From an uncultured Candidatus Saccharibacteria bacterium (GTDB lineage Bacteria > Patescibacteriota > Minisyncoccia > Phycocordibacterales > JAKAEA01): DNA of 64,000 bases. The notes beneath the pieces are model-generated. The model worked only from the letters and a program-made list of their open reading frames with translations, searched no databases and was not told the origin of the DNA. The first letter of the stretch is position 1. The number at the start of each line of letters is the position of its first letter. Shown piece after piece: positions 17,910-24,217 of the stretch. The stretch lies in the NCBI GenBank assembly GCA_964532205.1, contig CAZHGQ010000005.1, positions 1,520 through 65,519 on the forward strand, read 5' to 3'. A program made the translations under genes and the position numbers.

Positions 17910-20831
17910 ATGAGACAAAAATTAATTATTGGCCTCAGTATCGCAGTTGTGCTTTTTGTTGGTTTTATTACGACGTACACATTCAGTCTAAAGTTAAAAG
18001 AGGGCGCAGTGCCGTCATCGTCACTCACGGCGAGTGTTGCTGAAGCTCTACAACTTCAACTCAATGTTGGTTGGAGTCGTTTTTCACCACAAGGCGGTCA
18101 GAATGTGATCTATGTCTCAAGTTCACAAGGTAATGACAATAACGACGGTCTCTCTCAGTTAACCCCTGTCAAAACTCTGGCCAAAGGCCAGTCACTGATT
18201 CGCTCAAATCACAGTGACTGGATGGTCTTGCGGCGTGGCGATGTTTGGGATGAAAGTTTTGGCACGTGGACTCGCAGTGGTACGTCAGCCGATAACCCAG
18301 TCGTAATTTCAAGTTATGGCACAGGTCCACGTCCGCTGGTGAATGTTCGCAACGGTCAAAGCGCTTTGGCACTTAGAAATGCCGGCGTCAACAATTTTGC
18401 CATGATCGGTATTCACATTCGTTCTTATCAGGAAAAGAATAAAAAACAAGAGAAGGGTATTAGTTTGCCTGGTAATTACCAAAATATTTACCTTGATGAC
18501 ATGTTCATCGAAGGCTTTACTGGTAATGTTGTGACAGAAACCTGCGAGACGTGTGTGCGAAAAAATCTAGTCATCACTCACTCAATTATTGCCAATGCCT
18601 ATAACCCAGAGGGTAATGCCAGTGGTATTTTTATCACCTCAACAGATGGCATCAAAGTTGAAGACAGTATCTTCTATCATAATGGTTGGAATAACGGTAA
18701 TGTAAGTTATGATCCTACAGCGCGTAGAACTGCCGCAACAGAATTTAATCAAGGTCTCTATCTTTCACACAACAATACAGCCAATACAATCGTTCGTAAT
18801 AATGTTATTGCTGATACTGCCAATGGCGGTGTTTGGTTGCGTCGTGGTGGTTTGGCTGAAAACAACTTCTTTGTTCGCAATACTAACGCACTACTCGTGG
18901 CCATTGGTCCAAACACGGTGCGTAACAACGTTATTGTTGAGGGTGTAAATAATATTGATGGAAATAAGGTTGGTGGTATTGAAACTAAGCCAACAAATAC
19001 AGGTACAGTTTTTGAAAATAACTTGATTGTCAATTCTGCCAAAAACACCGGAAGTGGGTTTAAGGCCGTCGGGTCATTCGATTTCGGTTATGGTGAAGAC
19101 TATGCTAAATCATTGATTACTCGTTACAGTTTTACCTTTAAAAATAATACTATCTATAATGCTGGTGTTGGTCTAAATGTTGGTACTCGCTCTATTGCCG
19201 GTGGTGATATTTTGGGTAATATATTTATCGAAAAGCGAGATCAGGCGCCCGTACCGACTGGTTACGCACCGGTTGGTGCCTGTTCGGATCTTGGCGGCGG
19301 CGGTCTGCATTTAACCGTAGCTGGCAACACATTCTATTGTCCAAATTCAACAAACAAGTTCGTGATTACGAACGTACCGAAAACATTTAGCGAATATTCA
19401 ACTGCAGTCGGTGATACGACAAACCGTGAAGCGGATGTGACATTCGCTGATCCAAACCGCAGTATTAATAACTATGTTTCCGGTGGTTATGATGCATTCG
19501 TCCGAGGGTTACTGAATCAGTCGATAGATCGTTGGGATGAGAAATTCAGTGCCGCATCTCTTAATACATATTTCCGTGAAGCTTTTAAAACCAAATCAAA
19601 GACAGATAATCCGAAAGAGCCCGATGGTACAACTACACCACCGACTAAGCCTAGTTCAATTACCTTACTTACTCCAAACGGTGGTGAAACAATTTCAATT
19701 GGCGATACAGTGAATGTGACCTGGAAATCAACAGAACTTCCGGCTGACTCTACAGTTCGCATCTCACTCTATAAGGGTGTGGAATTGGTAAGTACTTTGG
19801 CCACGGTAACAAATAGCGGTAGTTATTCATGGCAAGTTGGCGAACGACCCGAGGGTTTTGATTACTCTATCCGCGTGACTTCGACTAAATCCGATATGCT
19901 GAAAGATAATAGCGACCGACCGTTCATGATAAATAAGTTGGCACCACCAGAAACAAAAATTACTGTTACATCACCAAACGGAAATGAAAACGTGACAGTT
20001 GGTAGTACTGTCAATATTACCTGGAGCTCACTGACATTTGATAAAGACGCTCATGTCCGAATTAGTTTGTACAAAGCTGGTGTACAAGTAAGTACTATTG
20101 TTGCTGACACATATAACTATGGTACATATACTTGGACTGTTGGGGATCGCGAAACAGCAAGTGATTACAAGATTCGAATCACTTCAATCTCAAAACCAAC
20201 TGTTTACGATGAGAGTGATTTAGTATTCACAATTACCAAACCATTACCGCCAAGTATTACAGTACAATCACCGAATGGTGGGGAAGCCTGGTCAATTGGT
20301 GATGCTGTCCAAATTCGTTGGTCAACAGTAAGTCTGCCTTCAACTGCTACTGTCAGAATTAGTTTGTACAAAGCTGGTGTACAGGTTTCAACTCTAGTTG
20401 ATAGCTATGCCAATGTCGGTGTCTTCAATTGGAACATTGCTGATCGCCCAACAGGCAGTGATTACACAGTACGTGTGACGTCGACATCTGACACAACTAT
20501 CAAGGATGAAAGTAATGCAACATTTACCATCAATCCCGCACCTCAGCCGTCGATCACTGTCACATCACCAAATGGTGGCGAAACAATTAAGATTGGCTCA
20601 ACCGTACCTATTAGCTGGACATCAACTCGAGTTTCAAACAATGTCCGTATTAGTTTGTACAAAAATGGTACATATGTAAAAACCATTGCTTCCGATGTGG
20701 CAAACAATGGTTCATACTCATGGACTGTTGGTAGTGAAACTGCAACGTCAGGTTATGCAATTCGCGTGACATCAAGTGCTGATGATCAGCTTCGTGATAT
20801 GAGTAATGGTACGTTTACCATTACGAAGTAG
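17910..20831 (+). CDS. large secreted right-handed beta-helix (pectate-lyase-fold-like) protein with 4 C-terminal ~100-aa tandem Kre9/KNH-like repeats
   Basis: N-terminal TM/signal. Repetitive NN(V/F)I...N turns (NNVIADTANGGVWLRRGG, NNFFVRNTNAL, NNVIVEGVNN) suggest a beta-helix. Four repeats carry I-T-(V/L)-x-S/T-PNGGE...W...VRISLYK...Y-W-VG...YxIRVTS. Confidence 0.55.
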   Translation: MRQKLIIGLSIAVVLFVGFITTYTFSLKLKEGAVPSSSLTASVAEALQLQLNVGWSRFSPQGGQNVIYVSSSQGNDNNDGLSQLTPVKTLAKGQSLIRSNHSDWMVLRRGDVWDESFGTWTRSGTSADNPVVISSYGTGPRPLVNVRNGQSALALRNAGVNNFAMIGIHIRSYQEKNKKQEKGISLPGNYQNIYLDDMFIEGFTGNVVTETCETCVRKNLVITHSIIANAYNPEGNASGIFITSTDGIKVEDSIFYHNGWNNGNVSYDPTARRTAATEFNQGLYLSHNNTANTIVRNNVIADTANGGVWLRRGGLAENNFFVRNTNALLVAIGPNTVRNNVIVEGVNNIDGNKVGGIETKPTNTGTVFENNLIVNSAKNTGSGFKAVGSFDFGYGEDYAKSLITRYSFTFKNNTIYNAGVGLNVGTRSIAGGDILGNIFIEKRDQAPVPTGYAPVGACSDLGGGGLHLTVAGNTFYCPNSTNKFVITNVPKTFSEYSTAVGDTTNREADVTFADPNRSINNYVSGGYDAFVRGLLNQSIDRWDEKFSAASLNTYFREAFKTKSKTDNPKEPDGTTTPPTKPSSITLLTPNGGETISIGDTVNVTWKSTELPADSTVRISLYKGVELVSTLATVTNSGSYSWQVGERPEGFDYSIRVTSTKSDMLKDNSDRPFMINKLAPPETKITVTSPNGNENVTVGSTVNITWSSLTFDKDAHVRISLYKAGVQVSTIVADTYNYGTYTWTVGDRETASDYKIRITSISKPTVYDESDLVFTITKPLPPSITVQSPNGGEAWSIGDAVQIRWSTVSLPSTATVRISLYKAGVQVSTLVDSYANVGVFNWNIADRPTGSDYTVRVTSTSDTTIKDESNATFTINPAPQPSITVTSPNGGETIKIGSTVPISWTSTRVSNNVRISLYKNGTYVKTIASDVANNGSYSWTVGSETATSGYAIRVTSSADDQLRDMSNGTFTITK
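19659..20828 (+). repeat. four tandem ~297-300-bp coding repeats
   Basis: Repeat units start at 19659, 19959, 20256 and 20553. The protein-level identity is clear; the units have diverged at the DNA level. Confidence 0.7.
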
Positions 20832-21326
20832 TTAAGAACTTTTAAAGCCATTTAGCAAAGCTTCGGCTTGGCTGGCTAAGTCCATAAAGCCCCCCATTTC
20901 TTGAATTGTGAGATGGCGGGGCTTTGTGTCTTTAATGCAAAACACACCTAAGGGTAATCCTGAGACTGAATCAATAAGAGCCATGCCAGCATAGAATCGA
21001 ATGTGAGGTTCCCCAGTCACGTAGGGGTTATTCTTGAATCGCTCATCAAGTAGGGTGTCTTCTACAACGAACACGTCTTCTGCAAGCATGGCGTAGCTAC
21101 AGAAAGCAATTTCACGCGGCCCTTCCTTATTTGAAATTCCCTGACACGACTTATACCACTCTCGATCTTTATCGATAATTGAGATTGTTGAAATTGGTAC
21201 ACTGAGGAGTTTTGTGGCTTGTGAGGTAATAGCGTCAAAACGCGGATCTTGTTTTGAGTCTAAAATACCTTTGGCATAAAGAGCCTTAAGGCGTTGTGAC
21301 TCATGCGGATGGAGTAGTGTTGTCAT
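20832..21326 (-). CDS. GAF domain protein
   Basis: Classic GAF consensus: DERFKNNPYVTGEPHIRFYAGMALIDSVSGLPLGVFCIKDTKPRHLT. It overlaps the upstream gene by 4 nt. Confidence 0.65.
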   Translation of the reverse strand: MTTLLHPHESQRLKALYAKGILDSKQDPRFDAITSQATKLLSVPISTISIIDKDREWYKSCQGISNKEGPREIAFCSYAMLAEDVFVVEDTLLDERFKNNPYVTGEPHIRFYAGMALIDSVSGLPLGVFCIKDTKPRHLTIQEMGGFMDLASQAEALLNGFKSS

Positions 21327-21835
21327 GTTTTTTTAGGATTATTAATAACTGTTTCAACTCCTACAAAAAAACGGATTTCGCCAGTAGTATCCAAGACAGG
21401 GGAAATTTGTAAAAGTGCGTCATATATTGTTCCGTCTTTATGTTTGTTTTTAACAGTAACTTTATACGATTCCTTTTTAACCTTTATGGTATGCCACAAA
21501 ACTTTGTAAAATTCTGGTGACATTTGTCCACCCCACAGTGACGGTTTTTGACCAATCACTTCTGAGAGGGAGTAGCCGGTTGTGCGCTCAACTGCGCCGT
21601 TGGTGTAAAGAATTACACCCTCTGGATTAGTTACAATAACTTGCTCATCCATTTTCTCGCACATGATATTGAGCGAGCCGCAGCGGGTGCATTTAATCTC
21701 AATAGCACCGTGACCTTGGTCTTTAGCCAAAAGTTTGCCGCATTTGGTGCAGCGAATATCAAGATCTTTTTGAGGAGTTGTCATCTTTGCTCTTTTTAGA
21801 GCTTCGTGAGCTTCTTGTTTTTGAGTATAACACAT
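21323..21835 (-). CDS. Mu Com-like zinc-ribbon fused to a PAS sensor domain
   Basis: The N-terminus IRCTKCGKLLAKDQGHGAIEIKCTRCGSLNIM closely parallels phage Mu Com (IRCKNCNKLLFKADSFDHIEIRCPRCKRHIIM). It is followed by a PAS-like segment QVIVTNPEGVILYTNGAVERTTGYSLSEVIGQ. Confidence 0.6.
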   Translation of the reverse strand: MCYTQKQEAHEALKRAKMTTPQKDLDIRCTKCGKLLAKDQGHGAIEIKCTRCGSLNIMCEKMDEQVIVTNPEGVILYTNGAVERTTGYSLSEVIGQKPSLWGGQMSPEFYKVLWHTIKVKKESYKVTVKNKHKDGTIYDALLQISPVLDTTGEIRFFVGVETVINNPKKT

Positions 21836-21854: not shown

Positions 21855-21913
21855 ACGCAACAGCTTTACTGTTGCGTATGTAAAACCCCGGCAGCGCGTA
21901 TGCGCTGCCGGGG
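21855..21913 (-). terminator. two hairpins; the 12-bp GC-rich stem at 21886-21913 acts as the terminator for the minus-strand gene 21920..22237
   Basis: CCCCGGCAGCGC GTAT GCGCTGCCGGGG, with a T-run on the minus strand. Confidence 0.65.
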
Positions 21914-21919
21914 TTGGTG

Positions 21920-22237
21920 TTAGGCCTCAATCCCGTAATTGTCCCAGTCATTCATCCGTTCCAAGTTTGTGGTGGTATCGTTGCGTTGAATTTTGTACGC
22001 ACCTTGGAACGATTTCTTGCCGACGAGATTCACTCTGATAAACAGAGCTTCAGTCTCGTGGACGGTATCGGTAAAGATCGAGATGTTGTGGATCTGGTAG
22101 AACTTTTTGGGTAACAAGTGTTCGTTGACCAAATTAGTAACGGCCATCCAGACCAGCTCGTCATGTTCTTTCAACGAATTGTCACGAATGACAGTAACAT
22201 CATGAAGCCAATCTTGTGGTGAGAGAAACTTGGGCAT
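21920..22237 (-). CDS. hypothetical protein (105 aa)
   Basis: The ORF ends at a terminator and has an RBS-like AAGGAGG upstream (from the reverse complement of 22240-22250); no recognisable motif. Confidence 0.4.
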   Translation of the reverse strand: MPKFLSPQDWLHDVTVIRDNSLKEHDELVWMAVTNLVNEHLLPKKFYQIHNISIFTDTVHETEALFIRVNLVGKKSFQGAYKIQRNDTTTNLERMNDWDNYGIEA

Positions 22238-22300: not shown

Positions 22301-23134
22301 ATGAAAAACTCTAAGCAGGGAATAGCTCCATTATTAGTAATAGTCGTTGGTTTGGTAATTATTGGTGCGGGGTATTTATTTTTTCAAAAACAATCTCCTC
22401 AAAATGAAATTGAGAACGTGAAGAAATATTTTCCAGATGCGATCGGTAGTTTCACGCTCTATGGTCGTAATCCAGAAAAAATTCGAATGACTATTGAATG
22501 TGAAAAATTGCAAGATCACCCCGACTCAAAGGGTTCGGGTTTGCAAGGTGAAATTTGTGGCAGGTCAATAATTGGTGAATATCGTGACTCCAATACAAAC
22601 AAGGTTGTGTTTGTGCATTTAGCTCAATTTACATCGGGTAAGAGGGTGTATAAAGAATTTATTGAGAAGTCGGTAAAAAAAGATGTATTAAATGGCCAAA
22701 ATATTTTTCGAATTGAGCGCCCAGAAATTGGTTGGTTTCCAGCACAGACGTTTGGCGCAATAATTACCCAGGAAGGAGTAGTAAAAACTGAAGCCGATGG
22801 TGGTGAAAATATTGGATATAGTTACACAGGTGTCGCAACTGGCAATAATCCAGTGCTTAAATATTTTATTGAAAAGTATCCGCCAGGCACTTCTGATTCA
22901 GACAGCGATATACCTGAACGAGTACTCAGCAGTCTTATGTGTAAAGACAGCGATGATGGTTTGGATTACTACACCAAAGGTACCGTAAGGTGCCCTGGAT
23001 CAACATATACCGATTACTGCCAAGTAAATGACGTACCCAACACATTGATTGAATATGTTTCAAATGGTAATAGTGTCGGTACGCCATCATATGTTTGTCC
23101 AAATGGCTGTCGTGATGGTGCGTGTGTTAAATAA
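22301..23134 (+). CDS. secreted/anchored protein with a Cys-rich C-terminal module
   Basis: N-terminal TM MKNSKQGIAPLLVIVVGLVIIGAGYLFF; the C-terminus holds 8 Cys within ~60 aa. Confidence 0.45.
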   Translation: MKNSKQGIAPLLVIVVGLVIIGAGYLFFQKQSPQNEIENVKKYFPDAIGSFTLYGRNPEKIRMTIECEKLQDHPDSKGSGLQGEICGRSIIGEYRDSNTNKVVFVHLAQFTSGKRVYKEFIEKSVKKDVLNGQNIFRIERPEIGWFPAQTFGAIITQEGVVKTEADGGENIGYSYTGVATGNNPVLKYFIEKYPPGTSDSDSDIPERVLSSLMCKDSDDGLDYYTKGTVRCPGSTYTDYCQVNDVPNTLIEYVSNGNSVGTPSYVCPNGCRDGACVK

Positions 23135-23140
23135 TTTTTG

Positions 23141-23527
23141 TGGAGATGGCGGGAATCGAACCCGCGTGCATGAGGTGTTCTTAGATATATCTACAGCGTC
23201 TAGTTTATCTCTTTGACCAAAGTCAATTTAAGTTAGTCGGATATGGGATAAACAAAATTTCCGAAAAACCGATTCTCATTTAGTTCGGCAGAAACAGAGA
23301 ACAGAAGCTGCCTAACCTGGCTTGATTACACCGGGACTAAACGCACCAGATTTGCGCTTAGGCGATGTCGCTTAGGCTAAAGCGTAAGCGAATTGAAAGT
23401 TCTTACTTGAAAAGTAAGGTGACTTTACAGAAGATTTTGCACTTCAGATTTCCGTCAGATTTAAGAGTTAACGGTGCTCTACGTTGCATAGATAAGATAC
23501 GGACTCATGTCTAGGCCGATCATCCCC
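23141..23527 (-). ncRNA. ssrA: tmRNA (transfer-messenger RNA)
   Basis: On the minus strand the 5' end is GGGGAUGAUCGGCC and the 3' end is GGUUCGAUUCCCGCCAUCUCCA, giving a tRNA-Ala-like acceptor/T-arm. An internal tag frame reads ...QFAYALA followed by UAA. It lies immediately downstream of smpB. Confidence 0.8.
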
Positions 23528-23580
23528 AGTATGTTTTCAATCGTTTTGTTTTTGTGTAGGCCACGGGTATATATGTGGTG

Positions 23581-23625
23581 GCAACCTCGCAAAAGTGACA
23601 ACTTTTTTGTCACTTTTGCGAGGTT
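23581..23625. other. perfect 20-bp inverted repeat (hairpin, 5-nt loop) between smpB and ssrA
   Basis: CAACCTCGCAAAAGTGACAA cTTTT TTGTCACTTTTGCGAGGTTG. Confidence 0.7.
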
Positions 23626-23711
23626 GCGAAAAGGTGTCTGCCAAACCTACAGCAAAATAATGCAGATTAAAAAAATACTACGAATGATCGAAACTAACAC
23701 GTATTCAATTT

Positions 23712-24149
23712 TCAACGATCTGTGAATTCGCGGCGAACATCACGCTCGACATCTCTCTTCTTAATAGACTCGCGTTTGTCGAATTTCTTTTTGCCGCGAA
23801 CGGTAGCAATTTCTACCTTAATGTGACGCCCTTTATTATACACTAAAAGTGGCACTATTGTCAAACCTTGTTCATGGCCAACTAGAGCCTTAATTTCGGC
23901 TTTTGTTAAAAGCAGTTTACGTGGGCGTAAAGGATCGGATTCGGGACCGTTATTTTGCTGGTAGGGTGAAACATACATGTTTTGCAGCCAGACTTGTGTG
24001 CCTTCGACTATAATATATGAGCCATCGAGCGAACCTTGACCAGCACGAATAGACTTGACCTCGGTGCCGGTCAATTCGATGCCGGCTTCGTAACGGTTAA
24101 GTATTTCGTAGTTAAAAGTAGCTTTGCGGTTGTGAATCAGGGTACTCAT
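23712..24149 (-). CDS. smpB: SsrA-binding protein SmpB
   Basis: MSTLIHNRKATFNYEILNRYEAGIELTGTEVKSIR is the SmpB signature; the track ORF is extended 5' to 24197. Confidence 0.9.
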   Translation of the reverse strand: MSTLIHNRKATFNYEILNRYEAGIELTGTEVKSIRAGQGSLDGSYIIVEGTQVWLQNMYVSPYQQNNGPESDPLRPRKLLLTKAEIKALVGHEQGLTIVPLLVYNKGRHIKVEIATVRGKKKFDKRESIKKRDVERDVRREFTDR

Positions 24150-24217
24150 GCGTCTATCATAGCAAATAGGGGAAATTAATGTATAATAACACTTCAATTA
24201 ACCATTAACGTAATATT

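Follow-up and report, generated by a model that had tools for sequence, protein, structure and literature searches.

A Com-type zinc ribbon fused to a PAS domain in Patescibacteria, and the leader hairpin that accompanies it: a candidate sensor-coupled RNA-binding regulator

Introduction

For decades, to our knowledge, Com has figured only as an oddity of phage biology, the regulator of a single gene. What, then, would a Com-like zinc ribbon do when it is encoded on a bacterial chromosome and joined to a sensor domain? This question is raised by a two-gene operon on the minus strand of a 64,000-nucleotide (nt) stretch of DNA, hereafter the window, from an uncultured Candidatus Saccharibacteria bacterium (contig CAZHGQ010000005.1, positions 1,520 to 65,519). 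Two open reading frames (ORFs), 21323..21835 (170 amino acids when taken as the longest ORF) and 20832..21326 (164 amino acids), share a 4-base ATGA overlap at 21323-21326. The first carries a Com-like ribbon followed by a PAS domain and is called Com-PAS below; the second encodes a GAF protein. A preliminary description, made from the sequence alone, had proposed this arrangement, and both the ORFs and Pfam confirm it.

The answer favored here, with a probability of roughly 0.6, is that Com-PAS may be a PAS-gated, Com-type RNA-binding regulator acting by antitermination or by unmasking of the ribosome-binding site (RBS). Parts of this reading are inferred, namely that the protein binds RNA and activates instead of repressing, that its PAS domain gates this activity, what the ligand is, and what part the GAF protein plays. 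Literature searches returned no paper describing a Com-PAS fusion or the leader element reported below; the preliminary description likewise had not recognized the architecture as a known one.

The Zinc Ribbon and Its Relation to Mu Com

The Com-type Cys4 zinc ribbon (RCTKCGKLLAK...EIKCTRCGSLN) occupies 21665..21760 on the minus strand, as placed by the Pfam family Zn_ribbon_Com (PF10122) and by alignment with Mu Com. Pfam matches were judged against the gathering scores, and all three families found in the operon lie above them. PF10122 reaches 31.5 bits (cutoff 22.9) over residues 26-57 of the 170-residue ORF, and the PAS and GAF models, whose presence had also been anticipated, reach 54.4 bits (PF00989) and 39.3 bits (PF01590). 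No other zinc-ribbon family attained its cutoff in the Pfam scan of Com-PAS, so that the Com family stands as the sole zinc-ribbon assignment above threshold and the refuting outcome named in the preliminary description did not occur.

The alignment with Mu Com, for which the query was 100% identical to record AF083977, is gapless, with 16 of 32 residues identical (50%) and a pairwise E of 1e-8. The homology is therefore real, but the preliminary description overstated it as holding almost residue by residue, and the peptide quoted there as the first 45 residues corresponds to residues 27-58 of the 170-residue ORF. The ribbon cysteines and the KLL/EIK positions are nearly invariant among 26 homologues. 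Searches of the PDB returned no Com structure and matched the ribbon only below threshold, to the ribbons of eS27 and of RNA polymerase subunit P.

Judged by its sequence and by its target RNA, Com-PAS is a member of the Com family, though a non-classical one. Classical Com is a protein of about 60 amino acids, phage-encoded and located beside a mom-type gene, whereas Com-PAS has 153 amino acids and a PAS domain. A search of a phage collection with the Mu Com sequence gave 26 records, called Com or Mom where they are named. No phage genes occur near the window operon, whose context is chromosomal and includes ftsH, smpB, and the gene for transfer-messenger RNA (tmRNA).

The length of 153 amino acids is counted from the second methionine (ATG at 21784-21782), which is almost certainly the true start and gives a coding sequence (CDS) at 21323..21784, minus strand, by the ORF list and its translation. 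The first ATG (21835) is upstream of the extended -10 element of the promoter (21832-21824), homologues measure 145-160 amino acids, and the 95%-identical relative P0001 begins with MTTPQKD; these points lead to the second methionine. In the longest ORF, the additional stretch 21784-21835 takes in the leader RNA element.

Com-PAS Proteins in Other Genomes

The fusion had been proposed as something to seek in other genomes, and a search of 5.8 billion proteins gave 29 close relatives of Com-PAS, 25 of which are annotated with PF10122 Com plus PAS. Their source names read only "PAS domain S-box protein" or similar. Of the genes that lack PF10122, at least one, the PAS gene beside the GAF protein P0043 at locus L142, was called too short, as 143 amino acids with its start inside the ribbon; miscalled starts of this kind hide the Com domain from annotation, and the fusion is therefore undercounted.

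Genome and metagenome scans yielded 132 loci with the same PAS subfamily, recognized by the motif PSLWGGQM. The ribbon is present in 27 distinct loci including the window, and the ribbon-less members are mostly long histidine kinases. With L134, L142, L143, and L144, which were fetched later, the number of distinct Com-PAS loci examined is 31; most loci are metagenome-assembled genome (MAG) or metagenome contigs, each seen over about 6 kb. The majority of the genome records are labelled as Patescibacteria MAGs (Saccharibacteria, Magasanikbacteria, Taylorbacteria, and Paceibacterota), and several third-party annotation (TPA) records are labelled otherwise (Gammaproteobacteria, Bdellovibrionales, and Pseudomonadales), the labels being those of the record titles.

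A ribbon split from its PAS domain was also observed. In L132 (1618-1842 and 2019-2198), a stand-alone Com-like ribbon protein of 71-74 amino acids (FRCETCKKLLFKG...VEVKCRGCG) is encoded about 180 nt upstream of a gene with a PAS domain of the same WGGQM type. No pattern-matching site was seen on this short contig.

A Conserved Hairpin in the Leader

The preliminary description had suggested looking for a structured RNA target, and a conserved hairpin of the Com-site type is found in the window leader; none of the 31 distinct loci examined is without one. The window copy, GA-AGCU-C-AC-GA-AGCU-C (21799..21814, minus strand; 16-nt RNA GAAGCUCACGAAGCUC), forms a 4-bp stem with the loop C-AC-GA. 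It lies 9 nt after the extended -10 element TGT-TATACT (TGTTATACT; 21824..21832, minus strand), found by promoter scan and conserved in L134, so that the mRNA would begin close to it, and it ends 14 nt short of the ATG. The site itself is identical in L134, a 95% relative. The strict pattern has its sole exact match in the window at this site and matched none of 100 shuffles; a covariance model run over the 64-kb window returned 21793-21820 with 31.3 bits and an E of 9e-7, the runner-up having an E of 0.68. Rfam has no family at the window leader, and the region contains no tandem repeats.

Across the family, the element is 16-17 nt long and takes the form GA-N4-C-N2-3-GA-N4′-C, where N4′ is complementary to N4. 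At least one copy, always on the sense strand, accompanies each of the 31 loci, placed before Com-PAS, before the next gene (GAF, histidine kinase, or pilus operon), or at both positions. L134, L142, L143, and L144 were outside the definition of the motif, and all four carry it. The stems observed are AGCU/AGCU, GAUC/GAUC, GACU/AGUC, AGCC/GGCU, GGUC/GACC, and CUAU/AUAG, with G.U stem pairs in L006, L075, L076, and L082. In most upstream regions, that of the window included, the element appears as a repeat, GAAGCTC-N2-3-GAAGCTC. Its interpretation as a pure direct repeat, GAAGCTC-N2-GAAGCTC, serving as a tandem DNA operator was rejected on the ground of cores that are complementary and not identical (GACT/AGTC, AGCC/GGCT, and GGTC/GACC).

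The element is concentrated near Com-PAS. Thirty strict-pattern matches fall in the 8.6 kb of zones that flank the gene, where 0.12 would be expected (Poisson P about 5e-61; mean of shuffled zones 0.05), and the 2.41 Mb of background sequence holds 33. When the pairing requirement was dropped, 32 of 40 zone matches were still fully paired, whereas the share among the 3151 matches in the background was 2.7%; the pairing thus belongs to the element and was not introduced by the search. In an alignment of 32 sites all four stem pairs covary. The number of double-change cells is 33 where shuffles give 8.7 (none of 500 reaches 33), a count that is partly circular, several sites having been gathered by a regular expression that requires pairing; the circularity is addressed by the search free of that requirement, which also gives paired sites. 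In slid registers of the same alignment pairing falls to 16-48%.

Correspondence with the RNA Target of Com

The element resembles what is known of Com from biochemistry. Nowacka et al. (2019) performed systematic evolution of ligands by exponential enrichment (SELEX) with the Com finger of H. sputorum and obtained a bipartite motif, GAG(N)2CC, which occurs twice around a 3-4 bp stem (PMC6483171). Com binds CC(N)2-3GAG in a hairpin loop, with the GA dinucleotide protected upon binding, and the native Mu Com site GAAUGCCUGCGAGCAUCCC adjoins and partly overlaps the translation-inhibition structure of mom, of which Mu Com is the translational activator; no structure of a Com-RNA complex had been reported as of 2019 (PMC6483171).

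The Mu mom 19-mer can be parsed as GA-AUGC-C-UGC-GA-GCAU-C, which is the architecture of the Patescibacteria element. A regular expression derived solely from the Patescibacteria leaders matches this 19-mer and the SELEX binders RNA I and RNA II (chance about 4e-5 per oligonucleotide), and it matches neither RNA IA, whose binding is weaker, nor RNA IB, which binds little (binding data from PMC6483171). In addition, when the 1.6-kb Mu com-mom locus is scanned with a covariance model built from the Patescibacteria sites alone, the top-ranking match is the known Com site.

Com-PAS thus shares with Mu Com a homologous Cys4 ribbon (50% identity over 32 residues), a putative RNA target of the form GA-N4-C-N2-3-GA-N4′-C with a 4-bp stem and the loop C-N2-3-GA, and a site immediately upstream of and overlapping a predicted inhibitory hairpin. 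It differs in being cellular, mostly from Patescibacteria MAGs, rather than phage-encoded, in having a PAS domain in place of the disordered C-terminal tail of Com, and in its putative targets, which would be its own leader and neighboring cellular genes instead of a DNA-modification gene. About half of its sites are coupled to terminators, which implies attenuation, a mode unknown for Com. With respect to classical Com, what is new is a protein that is cellular, sensor-fused, autoregulatory, and often terminator-coupled.

Does the Ribbon Read the Element?

If the ribbon is the reader, the element should change when the ribbon changes. In L005 and L010, GU replaces GA in both halves of all sites, and their ribbons constitute a subgroup with LL[T/A]EG, one residue fewer between the knuckles, and I[E/D]IRC. 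The expectation of GU sites for this subgroup was borne out in the newly fetched L143 and L144 (the loci of P0020 and P0012), each with two GU-type sites and no GA-type site. In total, GU is found in all four subgroup loci (7 sites) and GA in all 27 others. The ribbon and all the sites of a genome change in step, as would be expected if one trans-acting factor read them all, and the covariation lends indirect support to specific recognition of the hairpin RNA.

The alternative that the ribbon is a structural or protein-interaction module, while some other factor reads the element or a protein-independent attenuator travels with the operon, has to be considered at this point. Zinc ribbons are versatile, the model of this ribbon is of low confidence, and two-component genes occur in the neighborhood, with receivers in L004, L005, L010, and L144 and kinases in L004, L020, and L021. 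Against it, the nearby receivers are without an output domain, and the coincidence of the GA-to-GU change in all sites of a genome with the change of the ribbon points to the ribbon itself. The element moreover tracks the ribbon and not the PAS domain or the neighbors. All covariance-model matches with E<0.1 in 937 kb of loci fall in Com-PAS loci, and no site at that threshold occurs in about 690 kb around the ribbon-less members of the same PAS subfamily (74 loci). Finally, the element precedes genes as diverse as GAF, kinase, pilB, and giant surface protein genes. This alternative is considered very improbable.

A few pattern matches lie by short ribbon-less PAS genes (L057, L063, L113, L119, and L120: GACGTTCTTCGAAATGC, GAAATTC..GAAATTC) and were set aside as chance; in L063, both background matches are inside the CDS of a conserved alanyl-tRNA-synthetase-like gene. 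In L136 (2960-2990), a TGATATAAT box followed by GAAGGCTCTCGAATCTG was seen upstream of a GAF gene that has no Com-PAS neighbor. It is element-like with misfits and may be a degenerate relic or a chance occurrence.

Placement of the Sites and RNA or DNA Recognition

Within a search span of 40 nt upstream of the site, 19 of 33 sites follow an extended -10 box (TGnTAnnnT) by 7-28 nt, typically 7-11 nt, the rate in control windows being 4.7%. These sites would accordingly be at the very 5′ end of the transcript. Other sites occupy short promoter-less spacers between Com-PAS and the next gene.

A position of 7-11 nt after the -10 box, where most sites are found, is also a classic operator position, and the 4-nt cores are inverted repeats of a kind that dimeric DNA binders use as well. 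The ribbon could thus bind double-stranded DNA, the element being an operator past the transcription start and Com-PAS a ligand-gated transcriptional repressor. Many small PF10122 proteins carry the NCBI name "Com family DNA-binding transcriptional regulator". The element as a whole, however, is not palindromic: its GA...C flanks are direct repeats and only the cores are complementary, the pattern to be expected if the element is a hairpin in which particular bases stay unpaired. Its form is that of the Com RNA site established by biochemistry (PMC6483171), all sites are on the sense strand, and several stand in promoter-less intercistronic spacers, overlapping terminators. Four sites contain five G.U stem positions in all, which would be mismatches of DNA half-sites, as compared to one A.C. 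Recognition of DNA appears quite improbable in view of these observations.

Competing Structures and Proposed Mechanism

In minimum-free-energy folds, the site hairpin usually loses to a competing structure in which its 3′ half pairs with sequence downstream. At 15 of the 33 sites the competitor is a terminator-like hairpin with a T run behind it, and its 5′ arm begins inside the site (control 7.8%); clear cases are L002, L008, the site at 1306 in L004, L005, L010, L013, L014, L077, and the downstream sites of L143 and L144. In L001, L007, L009, L020, L021, and L074, the competitor hairpin is predicted to cover the start codon or the Shine-Dalgarno (SD) sequence. In these predicted structures, the overlap of site and competitor is an anti-terminator or anti-sequestor geometry, like that of Com and the inhibitory hairpin of mom. 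Since about half of the sites are terminator-coupled, the mechanism would be transcription attenuation at least as much as translational control. The RNA-binding translational regulator of the preliminary description is thus supported in its RNA-binding part by the ribbon and the leader hairpin, and its restriction to translation is too narrow.

On this basis, the operon product would be a one-component, sensor-coupled RNA-binding regulator. Its N-terminal Com ribbon would recognize the GA-N4-C-N2-3-GA-N4′-C hairpin at the 5′ end of its own operon mRNA. The 4-bp hairpin would be weak alone, so that its 3′ half could re-pair downstream into a terminator or into a hairpin masking the RBS or start codon, and protein bound at the site would stabilize the "on" conformation, much as the inhibitory structure on mom mRNA is opened by Mu Com. 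PAS domains usually dimerise. Given this and the two GA half-motifs of the site, a PAS dimer could present two ribbons to the two half-motifs, and the signal sensed by the PAS domain would set the affinity for RNA. The GAF protein would be a regulated product, translationally coupled in the window and provided with its own site and terminator in many relatives.

The same hairpin could serve the opposite purpose. Com-PAS might be a translational autorepressor that sits 14 nt before the start and blocks 30S loading. The operon of Com-PAS and GAF would then be under negative feedback, at any rate at loci that, like the one in the window, have no terminator. Here there is a single site and no terminator in the Com-PAS leader. 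The predicted competitor is a tentative 5-bp hairpin, GCUCU-aaaa-AGAGC (21789..21802, minus strand), found in the minimum-free-energy fold of the leader, which takes up the 3′ half of the site and covers an SD-like AAGAG just before the ATG; this hairpin is weak and not conserved in L134. Negative autoregulation through leader binding is, in general, common among bacterial RNA-binding proteins. On the other side, the clear alternative structures share the 3′ half of the site with a terminator or start-codon hairpin, and Mu Com is an activator (PMC6483171). Autorepression is therefore held to be unlikely. For the window in particular, autoregulation via the leader is well supported and its sign is not, the alternative hairpin being weak and not conserved.

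Several observations weigh against the reading of Com-PAS as a PAS-gated RNA-binding activator. RNA binding is deduced from homology and from the cis-element, entirely by computation, and the activation model depends on predicted structures. The window leader folds weakly (-7 kcal/mol, z -1.3), and one arm of its alternative hairpin is mutated in L134, while the site and promoter are identical there. The AlphaFold model of the ribbon has a predicted local distance difference test (pLDDT) value of only about 60, the match of the covariance model to the Mu site is weak (7.8 bits, E 0.44 in 1.6 kb), and a position just past the transcription start suits a DNA operator also. The GA/GU switch probably arose only once, in a single clade. 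Lastly, several flavin-contacting residues of LOV domains and NifL are not conserved in Com-PAS (NCRFLQ and NESIL are replaced by KPSLWGGQM).

The PAS Domain and Its Putative Signal

The PAS domain, of the PSLWGGQM subfamily, occupies 21356..21658 on the minus strand (residues 60-160 of the 170-residue ORF by PF00989) and is modelled by AlphaFold with a pLDDT above 90. Its closest solved structures are the PAS domains of NifL (2gj3; E 2e-19, template modelling score 0.86) and MmoS (3ewk; E 5e-20), which bind flavin adenine dinucleotide, followed by LOV domains. The Trp of "Y..LW" and the Asn of "V.N.(R/K)KD" found in NifL, MmoS, and LOV domains are kept in Com-PAS. NESIL in NifL and NCRFLQ in LOV domains are flavin-contacting. 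The stretch that reads GKNESIL in NifL and GRNCRFLQ in LOV domains differs in Com-PAS, where it is an invariant GxKPSLWGGQM; the last-strand Gln of LOV domains is Glu, and the photoactive Cys is absent. As judged from the nearest structures, the signal may be flavin or redox state, which is only a guess because the central motif of the flavin pocket differs, though some pocket residues are kept.

A PAS domain with invariant PSLWGGQM...F...W is common to many long histidine kinases of Patescibacteria. This suggests that the PSLWGGQM sensors of these bacteria have one common ligand or cofactor.

The GAF Protein and Other Neighbors of Com-PAS

The stand-alone GAF protein of 164 amino acids (20832..21326, minus strand; PF01590 cutoff 22.4) overlaps the Com-PAS stop with its start (ATGA), which leads to translational coupling in the window. 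Among solved structures it is closest to the GAF domain of a P. aeruginosa diguanylate cyclase (PA2771/Dcsbis; 4zmu), with which it aligns over its full length at an E of 4e-26; the window protein differs in standing alone, without an output domain. A GAF domain of the 4zmu type also heads the GAF-PAS-histidine kinase of L004.

A GAF orthologue is directly downstream of Com-PAS in 17 of the 27 tabulated loci and also in the later-fetched L142 and L143. Stand-alone GAF relatives form at least 199 clusters, greatly outnumber Com-PAS, and are also found where it is absent, so that the GAF protein is more likely a frequent regulated output, possibly a second sensor, than an obligatory subunit. The idea of an obligatory partner was dropped, as the distant GAF relatives P0119 and P0104 have neither an adjacent Com-PAS nor a site.

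Elsewhere, the neighbors of Com-PAS are signalling and surface genes. In L020 and L021 it is beside PAS-histidine kinases and receiver-only response regulators, in L004 it belongs to a GAF-PAS-kinase operon, and in L005 and L010 a receiver is upstream and pilB/pilC/pilin genes are downstream. Pilins are neighbors in L001 and giant surface proteins in L016 and L018.

Some individual sites with terminators were noted in this connection. At 1306-1345 of L004, element and terminator head a multi-gene operon with two receiver proteins, the GAF-PAS-histidine kinase, and Com-PAS as the last gene. At 6451-6497 of L005 and 6453-6497 of L010 they stand before the pilB/pilC/pilin cluster of type IV pilus genes, and at 2030-2075 of L144 they precede a gene other than GAF. 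There are hints here of a regulon of signalling and surface genes.

Comparison with ANTAR Regulators and Wider Significance

The sensor-ANTAR proteins (NasR, AmiR, EutV, and PAL) are alike in logic, combining a sensor (a PAS/LOV, GAF, or receiver domain) with a small RNA-binding module that acts on leader hairpins. The ANTAR module stops a terminator or RBS-masking structure from forming; it is a three-helix coiled coil and recognizes two hexaloop hairpins. In Com-PAS, by contrast, the module is an unrelated Cys4 zinc ribbon and the RNA is one 4-bp hairpin with GA motifs. Even with E values as high as 1 allowed, Pfam gave no match to ANTAR (PF03861). PAL (6hmj), a PAS-ANTAR-LOV receptor, is rank 35 among the structural neighbors of the PAS domain.

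A broader proposal is given somewhat better than even odds. Com-PAS would be an unrecognised Patescibacteria family of ligand- or redox-gated riboregulators, in which about 150 amino acids read a 16-17 nt hairpin and switch termination or translation initiation of their own operon and of signalling, pilus, and surface-protein genes, with a GA/GU code tied to a few ribbon residues. If this holds true, the Com finger would be a module of general use for recognizing RNA, which cells have connected to a sensor domain, and the family would be a second, independent solution to the problem that ANTAR solves, that is, the zinc-finger counterpart of ANTAR regulators.

The protein/RNA pair is very small (153 amino acids and 16 nt), and its dozens of natural variants, stem covariation, and GA/GU specificity switch offer material on how Com reads RNA. 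It could be a start for small ligand-controlled RNA switches and, if the proposal is true, a compact natural part for synthetic ones. Concrete circuits of regulation that can be tested are few in Patescibacteria (the candidate phyla radiation, CPR), where gene regulation is almost unexplored, and this is one of them.

Surroundings of the Operon in the Window

Upstream of the operon, a terminator-like hairpin of the 105-amino-acid gene (CCCCGGCAGCGC-ATAC-GCGCUGCCGGGG-UUUU; 21882..21913, minus strand), read from the sequence and conserved in L134, separates that gene from the Com-PAS unit. The terminator scan missed it because its T run is only 4 T. Between this terminator and the Com-PAS promoter there is a 9-bp perfect inverted repeat, ACGCAACAG-TAAAG-CTGTTGCGT (21855-21877). 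It was considered as an operator and rejected, being degenerate in L134, and is probably not functional.

The remaining surroundings are ordinary chromosome, with tmRNA, smpB, ftsH, tRNAs, and a convergent gene for a surface protein of 973 amino acids. Neither the 105-amino-acid ORF (21920-22237) nor the next one (22301-23134, 277 amino acids) has a Pfam or NCBIfam match; the latter shows an N-terminal hydrophobic segment and a Cys-rich C-terminus. The tmRNA (94.9 bits) adjoins an smpB-like ORF, with ftsH divergent (23138-24197), and the three are a compact cluster for trans-translation and quality control.

On the other side of the operon, the stop codons of the convergent 973-amino-acid gene (TAG, ending at 20831) and of the GAF gene (TAA, minus strand, 20832-20834) abut within 20829-20834, with zero intergenic bases and no terminator between them. 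In L016 and L018, by contrast, the genes for giant surface proteins downstream of Com-PAS share a strand with it and are not convergent. Its product (17910-20831) is a secreted or surface protein whose N-terminal half has, by eye, the look of a right-handed beta-helix and whose C-terminal half repeats a Kre9/KNH-like Ig domain four to five times in tandem (PF10342, 104.6 bits).

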